DNA of 64,000 bases from Bacillota bacterium (GTDB taxonomy: Bacteria; Bacillota; Sulfobacillia; JAJYWN01; JAJZPE01). Location of the stretch: contig JAJZPE010000002.1 in the NCBI GenBank assembly GCA_021811325.1, forward strand, positions 10,157 to 74,156, in the 5' to 3' direction. Positions 53,576-56,303 of this stretch are shown piece by piece. The notes under the pieces are model-generated. The model did not search any database, was not told the origin of the DNA, and saw nothing but the letters and a program-made list of their open reading frames with translations. The number at the start of each line of letters is the position of its first letter. Within the stretch, counting starts at the first letter, position 1. The translations under genes and the position numbers were made by a program.

Positions 53576-55090
53576 TCACGCCGGCGTCTCCGGTTTGAAA
53601 CTCCGCGTGGCCTGCACTGCCGCCCGCCACCCGCGGTGGAGGCGGTCAACCTCGGCCGGCGAGGCCGCCGGAGCGAACCGCCTTTCGACCCGCCGGAGCC
53701 CGGCCAGGTGGTCCAGGTCGCGGTAGAGCCCGACCCCGAGCCCGGCAAGGCAGGCGGCGCCGAAGGCGGTCGTCTCGGTGACCGCCGGCCGCTCCACGAC
53801 GACCCCCAGGAGGTCGGCCTGGAACTGCAGGAGAAAGTCGTTGCGGGCCGCGCCGCCGTCGACCCTGAGGGATGACGGGGCCACCCCGGAGTCGGCGGTC
53901 ATCGCCTCGAGGAGGTCGCGGGTCTGATAGGCGACGGCCTCCAGGGCCGCCCGGGTCAGGTGGGCCCGGGTCGTCCCACGGGTCAACCCGAAGACCGCCC
54001 CCCTGGCGTGCATGTCCCAGTATGGGGCGCCCAGCCCGACGAAGGCCGGGACGAAGTAGACCCCGCCCGTGTCCCGGACGGACCGCGCCAGAGCCTCGGT
54101 CTCGCCGGACGAGGCGATCACCCCGAGGCCATCGCGCAGCCACTGGATGGCCGCGCCGGCGATGAAGACGCTCCCCTCGAGGGCGTAGGTGACGCGGTCG
54201 GACAGACCCCAGGCGATGGTCGTGATCAGCCCCGACTTCGACGGCACGGCCTGCTCGCCGGTGTTCAGGAGGAGGAAGCAGCCCGTGCCGTAAGTGTTCT
54301 TGGCCAGACCCGGGGCGAAGCAACCCTGGCCGAATAAGGCGGCCTGCTGGTCGCCGGCCACGCCGGCCAGGCGGACGCGGCCCCCGAGGAACTCCTCGGC
54401 CGTCAGGCCGAAGTCGCCGGCCGATGGCCGCGCCTCGGGCAGCATCTGCCGCGGGATGCCGAGCCTCGCCAGGATGTCCTGGTCCCACTCCAACCGGTGG
54501 ATGTCGAAGAGCATCGTCCGCGAGGCGTTGGAGTAGTCGGTGAGGTGCAGCCCACCGCGCGGGCCGCCGGTCAGGTTCCAGATGAGCCAGGTGTCGATGG
54601 TCCCGAAGAGGGCCTCGCCGCGCTCGGCCCGCTCCCGCAGGCCCGGGACGTTCTCGAGGAGCCAGGCCAGCTTGGTCCCGGAGAAGTAGGCGTCGACGAC
54701 CAGCCCGGTACGCTGCCGCACGACGTCCTCGAAGCCCTCGCGGCGTAGCGCCTCGCACATCGCCGCCGTCCGGCGGCACTGCCAGACAATGGCCGGGGCC
54801 AGCGGTCGCCCGCTCAGGCGGTCCCAGACGACGGTCGTCTCACGCTGGTTGGCCAGGCCCACCGCGGCCACGTCGCGGGCCGTCAAGCCGGCCTCGGCGA
54901 GGGCGCGGCGAGCCACTTCGAGCTGCGTCCCCCAGATCTCGGCGGCGTCGTGCTCGACCCAACCGGGTTCCGGGTAGTGCTGGGTGAACTCACGCTGGGC
55001 AATGACCCGGACGGCGCCGTCCGGGTCGAAGATGATCGCCCGGCTGCTGGTCGTCCCCTGGTCCAGCGCCAGGAGGTGGGTCCCGGCCAA
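53576..55090 (-). CDS. glpK: Glycerol kinase
   Basis: [25 protein letters not shown]...[14 protein letters not shown] matches the FGGY kinase/GlpK N-terminus. Homology runs the full 504 aa. Confidence 0.95.
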
Positions 55091-55137
55091 GGTCGTCTCC
55101 CCTTCCCCGACTCGTTTCCGGCCTCACGCCGGCGACG

Positions 55138-56016
55138 TCAGCGCGGCAGGCGCGCGAGCCTCTCCTCGAGCCAGCGATCGACGTCGGCGAGGACCGTTTC
55201 CCGTTCGTCTTCGTTGTGCAACTCGTGGTAGAACCCATCGTAAGAGTGGTAAGTCTTGTCGGCCGAACCGGCCTGCTCGAAGAAGGCCCGCGAGGCCGCC
55301 GGGTCGACCAGCTTGTCGGCGGTGCCCTGGAGGATCAGGCAGGGCCGGACGAAACTTGCGGCCCCGGTGGAGACCTTCTGCATCGCCGCGTTGAAGGCCA
55401 GAAACCAACCGGCGCTGACCACCCGGCAGACCAGCGGGTCGGCGGCATAGGCCCGCCCGACCTCGGGGTTTCTGGCCAGGACCGACGGGTCGATCTCGTT
55501 CTCTTGCGAGAACGTCGGCATCAGCCGCCCGGCCACCCTGGCCAGGGCCAGCTTCGCCGGGGGCACCTTGACGCCGAGGGCCACGGCCGGCCCGGAGGCG
55601 ATGACCGCCCCGACGCCGGGGCGGCCCTCGACCCCGTGCAGGAGCACGATGAGCCCGCCCATGCTATGCCCATAGGCGACCACCGGCAGCCCCGGGTTCT
55701 CCCGGCGGGCCACCCCGAGGAGGGCGTCGTAGTCGTCGAGGAACTCGGAGAAGGACCCGACGTGACCCCGCCGGCCGCCGGACTGCCCGAGCCCGCGGAA
55801 GTCCAGGGCGTACACGGCGAAGCCCCGGTCGGCGTAGCGCCGGGCGAAGGCGACGTAACGGCCGGAGTGCTCGCCTGCCCCATGGGCGACGGCCAGCACC
55901 GCCCGCGGGCCGCCGGCCCCCGCCCCTCCGGACGGCACGAGACTGCGATAGTACAGGTCCACCCCACCCTTGCCCGTCAACCGGCCCTCGCTTTCGCGGA
56001 TCCCCTTCTCGCTCAT
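55138..56016 (-). CDS. Alpha/beta hydrolase, lysophospholipase / monoacylglycerol lipase-like
   Basis: The internal ATG (M271 of track ORF 55138..56826) follows AAGGAGG. The product has HGAGEHSGRY, a GHSMGG nucleophile elbow, and a C-terminal ...YDGFYHELHNE (His of the catalytic triad). It is 293 aa. Confidence 0.85.
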   Translation of the reverse strand: MSEKGIRESEGRLTGKGGVDLYYRSLVPSGGAGAGGPRAVLAVAHGAGEHSGRYVAFARRYADRGFAVYALDFRGLGQSGGRRGHVGSFSEFLDDYDALLGVARRENPGLPVVAYGHSMGGLIVLLHGVEGRPGVGAVIASGPAVALGVKVPPAKLALARVAGRLMPTFSQENEIDPSVLARNPEVGRAYAADPLVCRVVSAGWFLAFNAAMQKVSTGAASFVRPCLILQGTADKLVDPAASRAFFEQAGSADKTYHSYDGFYHELHNEDERETVLADVDRWLEERLARLPR

Positions 56017-56303
56017 CCCGAAGCCTCCTTCGTTCGTCCGGCGAAGAGCTCGCTGCCGGACCCGTTCTTGGTCACCCGGGTCGCGGGCACCCCCAGTTCC
56101 CGGGCCAGGATCTCGACCACCCGCGGGCCGCAGAAGGCGCCTTGGCAGCGCCCCATCCCGGCCCGAGTCCTTTGCTTGACGCCGTCGACCGTGTAGGCCC
56201 CGGTCAGGGCGCGGGCCGTCATGGCGCCGACGATGCCCGCCCCGATGATGGCTGCGTCGAATGAGCCGCTGGTGGTAAGCCGCGAAGACAGCGAGGGGTT
56301 CAA
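56013..56303 (-). pseudogene. glpA: Probable in-frame deletion remnant of an FAD-dependent glycerol-3-phosphate dehydrogenase (GlpA-like) with BFD [2Fe-2S] domain
   Basis: The 96-aa ORF begins with a dinucleotide-binding fold (FDAAIIGAGIVGAMTARAL). That fold is fused directly to the C-terminal half of a BFD-like domain ([32 protein letters not shown]). The first Cys pair of the BFD domain and the ~400-aa catalytic body are absent. Its stop overlaps the lipase ATG (ATGA). Confidence 0.4.

Follow-up and report, generated by a model that had tools for sequence, protein, structure and literature searches.

What is a 96-codon open reading frame (ORF) that begins with an FAD-binding motif and ends in half of an iron–sulfur domain doing at the head of a glycerol operon? 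The ORF lies on the minus strand of a 64-kb stretch of contig JAJZPE010000002.1 (GenBank assembly GCA_021811325.1, Bacillota bacterium), here called the window, directly upstream of genes for a monoacylglycerol-lipase-like α/β hydrolase (hereafter the lipase) and glycerol kinase (glpK), which are encoded on the same strand. An earlier note, made from the letters alone, took the ORF for what is left of a GlpA/GlpD-type FAD-dependent glycerol-3-phosphate (G3P) dehydrogenase after an in-frame internal deletion. We find that the ORF is very probably the remnant of the operon's G3P dehydrogenase gene, inactivated by a recent, fixed, in-frame internal deletion that left the operon's signals intact. 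This is ordinary lineage-specific gene loss, a new instance of a familiar phenomenon and not a new kind of protein.

Both ends of the ORF derive from one protein

Pfam places model positions 19–50 of the 50-position Fer2_BFD domain at residues 34–68 of the remnant (E = 1e-7, 32.6 bits against a cut-off of 26) and, below its cut-off, positions 1–35 of the 353-position DAO model at residues 16–49 (E = 1e-3). In BLASTP against a 478-aa orthologue from a related metagenome-assembled genome (MAG), L008, remnant residues 3–34 align with residues 2–33 (59% identity, E = 2e-9) and remnant residues 35–94 with residues 417–476 (83% identity, E = 3e-33). A profile hidden Markov model (HMM) of the family, built from 162 full-length members and 482 positions long, matches the remnant at positions 3–22 and 420–479, leaving positions 23–419 absent. 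By both comparisons the two ends align to the termini of a single protein, and the direct joining of a Rossmann motif to the second half of a BFD domain, as described in the earlier note, is borne out by Pfam, BLASTP and the family profile.

The same picture is seen in the DNA. BLASTN against L008 aligns the upstream intergenic region and the N-terminal codons over 300 nt (E = 2e-46) and the C-terminal codons and the start of the lipase gene over 290 nt (E = 2e-63), the two alignments meeting at one point. Because the first of these spans the syntenic flank, the N-terminal GxGxxG is homologous to that of the relative; the coincidental match that the earlier note had allowed for does not fit this alignment or the protein-level one.

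Related lineages carry the full-length gene

Scanning one genome per species with the lipase returned one close relative, the uncultured Bacillota MAG L008, whose lipase is 77% identical and which has, where the 96-codon ORF sits in the window, a 478-codon gene for a DAO domain followed by a C-terminal BFD domain (DAO+BFD), overlapping the lipase gene through ATGA. With the L008 protein as query, four further close full-length homologues were found (65–79% identical, 474–486 aa). A full-length DAO+BFD gene of 474–486 aa thus stands at the same position in five related uncultured Bacillota lineages (L008/L177, L088–90, L091, L092/L096 and L093), as the deletion reading called for. The closest of them by lipase identity is L092 (82%); its species is represented by a further independent JGI contig, L096, recovered in a metagenome lipase scan, which also has the full-length gene upstream of its lipase. 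The 4-nt ATGA overlap recurs in L008, L091 and L092; in L088 and L093 there is no overlap between dehydrogenase and lipase genes.

The common gene order runs RNase J, ClpP-like protein, YlzJ, UppP, FtsK, DUF2512, DUF1540 (divergent), the DAO+BFD gene or its remnant, lipase and glpK. In a 21-kb locus from L177, collinearity continues through an M20 peptidase, LysE, a PQQ-propeller protein, SpoIID and UPF0182, as in the window. As five syntenic lineages carry the full-length gene, that form is ancestral, and only the window's lineage has the short one.

L093 (SRR22746121), which has a full-length dehydrogenase and a lipase 64% identical to that of the window, comes from the same sequencing project as L001–L007 (SRR227461xx), which belong to the species with the deletion; the two forms thus share one type of habitat.

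Size, junction and consequences of the deletion

Measured against L008 the deletion is 1149 bp, and against L092 it is 1170 bp, in frame, in agreement with the ~1.2 kb that the earlier note had estimated. Codon 34 is joined to the codon equivalent to full-length residue 417–424, the left side being retained as far as ...TARALT. The junction in the window reads ...CTG ACC GGG GCC TAC...; in relatives, the sequence at the left breakpoint is ...CTG GCC GGG TTG (L091) or ...CTC ACC CGG GTG (L008), and at the right breakpoint ...TTC GGG/GGA GCC TAC. A codon-level comparison with the five full-length orthologues reveals a C-GGG(G) microhomology of 4–5 nt at both breakpoints.

Lost are the FAD-binding domain beyond β1-GxGxxG-αA, including the acidic residue that ends β2, the whole substrate-binding domain and the first Cys pair of the BFD domain (CRCE, CxC). 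Canonical dinucleotide-binding βαβ motifs require the acidic residue at the end of β2. Relatives have CRCE...CQGxFC; the remnant has only CQGAFC, two of the four ligands. Of the features expected of a functional DAO+BFD dehydrogenase, then, linkage to glycerol kinase is present here as in the relatives, and the complete DAO domains (~370 aa) and the four-Cys BFD site (CxC ... Cx4C) are not. Because the remainder of the FAD domain, the substrate-binding domain and the first Cys pair are deleted, the predicted product cannot act as a dehydrogenase or oxidise G3P. Everything around the deleted segment was retained: the intergenic control region, the Shine–Dalgarno sequence, the start codon, the reading frame and the stop codon that overlaps the lipase start.

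The allele is fixed in the sampled population and founds no small-protein family

The identical 96-aa protein (P0001) occurs in NCBI, ENA and Logan contigs, where it has a BFD Pfam tag alone and no name; it is called as a protein in such public collections because its ORF is intact and undecayed. Eight Logan assemblies, from two run series (SRR22746113/115/119/123/128/132/137 and SRR13189623), are 99.93–100% identical to the window over 1.5–8.7 kb, with the same junction in all and no single-nucleotide polymorphism inside the ORF. When contigs with exactly the same lipase were looked up, the deletion allele was the only one upstream of it, with no full-length allele in the same species, and an exact 28-mer scan of JGI metagenomes for this species gave no match. 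The deletion allele is fixed in the sampled population.

We searched 1.84 billion representative proteins exhaustively with HMMER, using the 96-aa protein as query, and obtained 1373 matches. Proteins of ~470–520 aa match it in two stretches, N- and C-terminal; those shorter than ~200 aa match in one C-terminal stretch only, being contig-end or internal-Met fragments, with the single exception of P0027. The scan thus contained no conserved family of 90–100-aa proteins with the remnant's architecture, which the earlier note had named as a finding that would overturn its reading. Nor does the remnant have the complete PF04324 domain of a small BFD protein, as it matches positions 19–50 of 50 only.

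P0027 (L094:6001-6390, Deltaproteobacteria bacterium RBG_13_47_9) is a 129-aa singleton with a different junction, in an unrelated and apparently degraded context. Some 70 N-terminal residues are fused straight to the C-terminal segment and tail, making it another member of this enzyme family reduced, independently, to a mini-version by internal deletion; its locus also encodes DctP/DctQ, an Fe-ADH and an aldehyde:ferredoxin oxidoreductase. The right-hand boundary that P0027 shares with the remnant was considered as a recurrent breakpoint and rejected, because the query itself selects proteins that keep that segment and the shared boundary is therefore uninformative. The middle of the protein is likewise absent from three further representatives of 285–290 aa, P0307, P0345 and P0351. 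Short BFD-only proteins on long contigs (P0005, P0028, P0055, P0060 and P0094) were rejected as analogues: they have both Cys pairs or start at an internal Met of a longer protein (for example P0094 compared with P0128), and they have no Rossmann stub.

Identity of the ancestral enzyme

The full-length orthologues score 244 bits against the type-2 G3P oxidase model NF033460 (cut-off 460), 132–137 bits against the L-2-hydroxyglutarate oxidase model (cut-off 299) and 108–115 bits against the GlpA model TIGR03377 (cut-off 552.8). Their best solved relative is the Mycoplasma L-α-glycerophosphate oxidase 4X9M (E = 2.4e-41, residues 15–369). By these sequence relationships the ancestral enzyme is neither GlpD nor the canonical GlpA of GlpABC; it belongs to a DAO+BFD clade whose catalytic domain is nearest to type-2 G3P oxidase. 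The earlier attribution to a GlpA/GlpD-type enzyme therefore stands in so far as an FAD-dependent, DAO-type G3P-dehydrogenase-like protein was meant; for the precise affiliation, which the TIGR03377 scores speak against, GlpTk-like is the better description.

GlpTk, the family of Thermococcus kodakarensis TK1393 (Koga et al. 2019, cited in PMC11962113), also occurs in Thermotoga and Clostridium and clusters with NOX and MOX; GlpTk-NOX-MOX fusions have been reported in protists (PMC11962113). Architecture, a length of ~480 aa and linkage to glpK, rather than a comparison with TK1393 itself, suggest that the ancestral enzyme was a member of the GlpTk family of PMC11962113. A homologue from Caminicella sporogenes (L176), 41% identical, lies in a cluster glpK–DAO+BFD–Pyr_redox_2–DUF1667, which is the GlpTk-NOX-MOX arrangement of that paper. 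In P0256, a protein of 1299 aa, DAO+BFD is fused to a module resembling pyridine-nucleotide-disulfide oxidoreductases, to another C-terminal module and to an end like that of HAD-type phosphatases; the arrangement recalls the protist fusions of PMC11962113.

The full-length orthologues of the window's clade share with GlpTk the DAO and C-terminal BFD domains, a length of 474–486 aa and linkage to glpK; of the family's conserved positions, the first ~20 and the last ~60 survive in the remnant. The orthologues differ in that the clade has no adjacent NOX (Pyr_redox_2) or MOX (DUF1667) gene, lipase and glpK following instead, and the remnant in lacking profile positions 23–419 and with them the catalytic domain and the first Cys pair. 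In the full-length loci (L008/L177, L088, L091, L092 and L093) the dehydrogenase gene abuts the lipase gene translationally, glpK comes next, and there is no neighbouring NOX or DUF1667 partner gene.

Other known systems resemble the locus less closely. Mycoplasma pneumoniae GlpO (4X9M, NF033460) is the best characterised relative of the orthologues' catalytic domain, yet it has no BFD domain, the orthologues fall below its equivalog cut-off and the remnant retains only ~20 residues of that domain. With Escherichia coli GlpA (TIGR03377/NF008313) the orthologues share an FAD-binding DAO fold and a four-Cys BFD-like [2Fe-2S] domain, and the remnant's C-terminal part matches TIGR03377 positions 442–483; the orthologues are, however, far below the TIGR03377 cut-off, and no glpB or glpC lies nearby. 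Stand-alone BFD proteins (PF04324) are of comparable size, and the remnant has a significant PF04324 match, but its four-Cys site is incomplete and its N-terminal third is a Rossmann fragment foreign to such proteins. Finally, the remnant resembles other internal-deletion pseudogenes in being syntenic with intact orthologues, lacking essential domains and being lineage-specific, and differs from them in that its ORF is intact, its translation signals are kept and no decay is detectable.

Selection on the remnant and its neighbours

Against L092, the lipase has a ratio of non-synonymous to synonymous substitution rates (dN/dS) of 0.125 and glpK one of 0.144, which indicates that both genes are functional and under purifying selection. 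Over the 81 retained codons that can be aligned, the remnant has a dN/dS of 0.10 against L092 and 0.15–0.18 against the other lineages, no higher than the 0.075–0.29 of the same segment among the full-length orthologues. Changes unique to the window's branch number 6 synonymous and 0 non-synonymous in the retained codons, compared with 11 and 15 in the lipase; given the pooled counts, the chance that all six remnant changes would be synonymous is ~0.014. From site counts, a rough calculation gives ~16 non-synonymous changes expected of a remnant that was neutral over the whole terminal branch. With no decay, either the deletion dates from about the final fifth of that branch or constraint on the remnant continues, and the two fit equally well; diversity across the assemblies (at most 6e-4) is too low to separate them. 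An AlphaFold2 single-sequence model of the 96-aa product has a low-confidence mean predicted local distance difference test score (pLDDT) of 46.

Origin of the short form and competing explanations

In the account that we favour, an ancestral GlpTk-type gene of 475–486 codons (DAO plus C-terminal BFD) would have lost ~1.15 kb in one in-frame event, probably through slippage or illegitimate recombination at the C-GGG microhomology. Because the control region, ribosome-binding site, start codon, frame and overlapping stop all survive together with the lipase's own Shine–Dalgarno sequence AAGGAGG, the lipase and glpK would still be made. The remnant itself is most likely a recent pseudogene-type relic that has not yet decayed, in an operon that would now be limited to freeing glycerol from monoacylglycerol and phosphorylating it. 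Several observations weigh against parts of this account. The full-length orthologues reach no NCBIfam equivalog cut-off and have L-2-hydroxyglutarate oxidase as their second-best model, and the G3P specificity of the ancestral enzyme and its clade is putative. In a genome of 69% GC, a GC-rich microhomology of 4 nt carries little weight. Further, the retained codons lack the relaxed selection, and the ORF the decay, that would be expected of a pseudogene. This last point would be accounted for by a functional small protein, neo-functionalised after the deletion, which could take the form of a half-BFD peptide dimerising on a bridging [2Fe-2S] cluster via its CQGAFC pair, or of a decoy docking the former electron-transfer partners. 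The 6:0 against 11:15 distribution of changes and the pairwise dN/dS of 0.10–0.18 argue for it, as do the preserved Shine–Dalgarno sequence, start codon and frame and the coding-type GC content at third codon positions (GC3, 0.88). We nevertheless regard such a protein as unlikely: the architecture is conserved in no other lineage, the unrelated singleton P0027 having another junction; of the cluster ligands two out of four remain, and of the Rossmann motif β1-αA alone; no NOX or DUF1667 partner gene is encoded in the window; and the signal consists of six substitutions, which a recent deletion explains equally well, the retained segments being the family's most conserved.

Slightly less probable still is that selection kept the frame open as a translated leader whose amino acids are irrelevant, keeping the lipase–glpK message translated, preventing premature termination and allowing re-initiation at the lipase. 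The preserved ATGA overlap, promoter and Shine–Dalgarno sequence, the presence of the overlap in L008, L091 and L092 and the in-frame deletion all accord with it. Selection for frame or coupling is not needed, however, because one deletion in three would be in frame by chance, the lipase has a strong Shine–Dalgarno sequence of its own, 7 nt 5′ of its ATG, and two relatives (L088 and L093) manage without the overlap, so that coupling is not obligatory in the clade; moreover, a leader predicts no amino-acid constraint and explains the 6:0 bias no better than recency does. Frame preservation or translational coupling may have made a modest contribution to retention of the ORF under the deletion account. 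That the ORF arose by chance or from a collapsed or chimeric contig, through faulty assembly or binning, we consider very nearly negligible. High-GC genomes are rich in spurious ORFs, and this 10 kb is overlapped by 62 ORFs of 60 aa or more; yet an artefact or a chance ORF is hard to reconcile with an identical junction in eight independently assembled contigs from different runs, flanks that are collinear with five relatives on both sides, alignments of E = 3e-33 and 2e-9 and a coding-like distribution of GC over codon positions.

Metabolic consequences

Within the 64-kb window we found no other G3P dehydrogenase, family member, DAO-type protein, NOX, DUF1667 or glpF, using tblastn with a full-length orthologue, the 162-sequence family HMM on six-frame ORFs and Pfam on 34 further ORFs. 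G3P oxidation may have been lost at the level of the genome or may be performed by an unlinked enzyme. Monoacylglycerol would be converted to glycerol and on to G3P, which would enter phospholipid synthesis or be handed to an unlinked dehydrogenase. In model bacteria, glycerol kinase activity without removal of G3P is harmful; this harm, together with the continued purifying selection on glpK, suggests that some sink for G3P exists.

The locus offers a clean example of an operon that loses an enzyme through a single in-frame deletion while its promoter, ribosome-binding sites and gene overlap remain as they were. One would predict from it a metabolic difference from the five sampled relatives, in that glycerol and monoacylglycerol would be scavenged to G3P without operon-encoded oxidation. 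It also calls for caution in annotation: with its BFD tag, the remnant in public collections could pass for a small ferredoxin-like protein. Were the micro-protein functional after all, a Rossmann β1-αA stub joined to half a BFD domain would be a new small protein caught being born by internal deletion of an enzyme.

Layout of the operon

The arrangement that the earlier note described, with the 96-aa ORF on the minus strand overlapping the lipase gene through ATGA and glpK following, was confirmed in the sequence (Table 1). The ATGA lies at 56016..56013, where the TGA of the remnant shares two bases with the lipase ATG (56016..56014). A 47-nt gap separates lipase and glpK, the latter lying two genes downstream of the remnant.

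Table 1. Features of the glycerol operon, in window positions.
Feature	Position	Strand	Details
Conserved intergenic blocks GCAGGA-AG ... GGCGTATT(C)T	56331..56361	(-)	Between the divergent DUF1540 gene and the remnant; presumed promoter/operator
Remnant Shine–Dalgarno sequence GGGAGGAG	56313..56320	(-)	9 nt 5′ of TTG; conserved in full-length orthologues (six-lineage alignment)
Remnant ORF, 96 codons	56013..56303	(-)	TTG start 56303..56301; TGA stop 56015..56013
N-terminal remnant, codons 1–34	56202..56303	(-)	Lineage-variable leader and β1-GxGxxG-αA of the FAD-binding fold, FDAAIIGAGIVGAMTARALT; tblastn 56297..56202
Deletion junction, codon Gly35 (GGG)	56199..56201	(-)	From breakpoint comparison with five full-length orthologues; the two BLASTN high-scoring pairs overlap there
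C-terminal remnant, codons 36–96 and stop	56013..56198	(-)	Latter half of the BFD-like [2Fe-2S] domain with two of its four Cys ligands, then the C-terminal tail typical of the family (..GRTKEASG)
Lipase Shine–Dalgarno sequence AAGGAGG	56024..56030	(-)	7 nt 5′ of the lipase ATG; inside remnant codons T-K-E-A
Monoacylglycerol-lipase-like α/β hydrolase, 292 aa	55138..56016	(-)	Intact; Pfam Hydrolase_4, E = 2.9e-75
Glycerol kinase, glpK, 504 aa	53576..55090	(-)	Intact; above NCBIfam cut-offs

The best matches to the lipase among solved structures are 6EIC, a monoglyceride lipase from Mycobacterium tuberculosis (E = 3e-52), and the human enzyme MGLL (E = 2e-41); the lipase translation contains GHSMG, a GxSxG nucleophile elbow, consistent with a monoglyceride-lipase-type α/β hydrolase. 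Glycerol kinase scores 763.9 bits against NF000756 (cut-off 498) and 687.2 bits against TIGR01311 (cut-off 590.35), covering positions 3–494 of 496. In the frame of the remnant, GC content by codon position is 0.63/0.61/0.88, coding-like for a genome of 69% GC. The 562-aa ORF, of which the earlier note allowed that the remnant might be antisense noise, is the lipase reading frame continued upstream without a stop; it lies on the same strand and is no antisense gene.

Upstream of the remnant, the invariant 8-mer GGCGTATT and the GCAGGA-AG block ~19 nt further upstream are conserved in six lineages (the window, L008, L088, L091, L092 and L093), and this region is probably a shared promoter or operator, an assignment drawn from the conserved blocks, since a consensus scan of 53300..56900 for sigma-70 promoters and terminators gave no match. 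The position of the start codon is conserved across the same lineages, as TTG in three and ATG in three. An Rfam scan of 53000..57500 at permissive E-values returned sub-threshold chance matches only, with no riboswitch or leader RNA.

Elsewhere in the window

The window is a housekeeping region of a spore-former, with genes for MutS/L, RecA, RNase Y, SpoIIP, SpoIID, FtsK and others. At 38764..41487 (-), between genes for a polysaccharide deacetylase and a D-Ala-D-Ala carboxypeptidase, lies a 907-codon ORF rich in Ala, Gly, Arg and Leu (GC3 0.88) with no Pfam match at E ≤ 1e-5. Coding-like GC by codon position, again with no Pfam match at E ≤ 1e-5, was also seen in five further ORFs, at 7543..8262 (-), 12852..13229 (-), 20529..21635 (+), 21708..22349 (-) and 29821..30510 (-). 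The gene at 49527..51584 (-) encodes a PQQ-like β-propeller protein with a C-terminal domain of the copper-amine-oxidase N-terminal type, and in L001 and L177 its position downstream of the glycerol genes is conserved.

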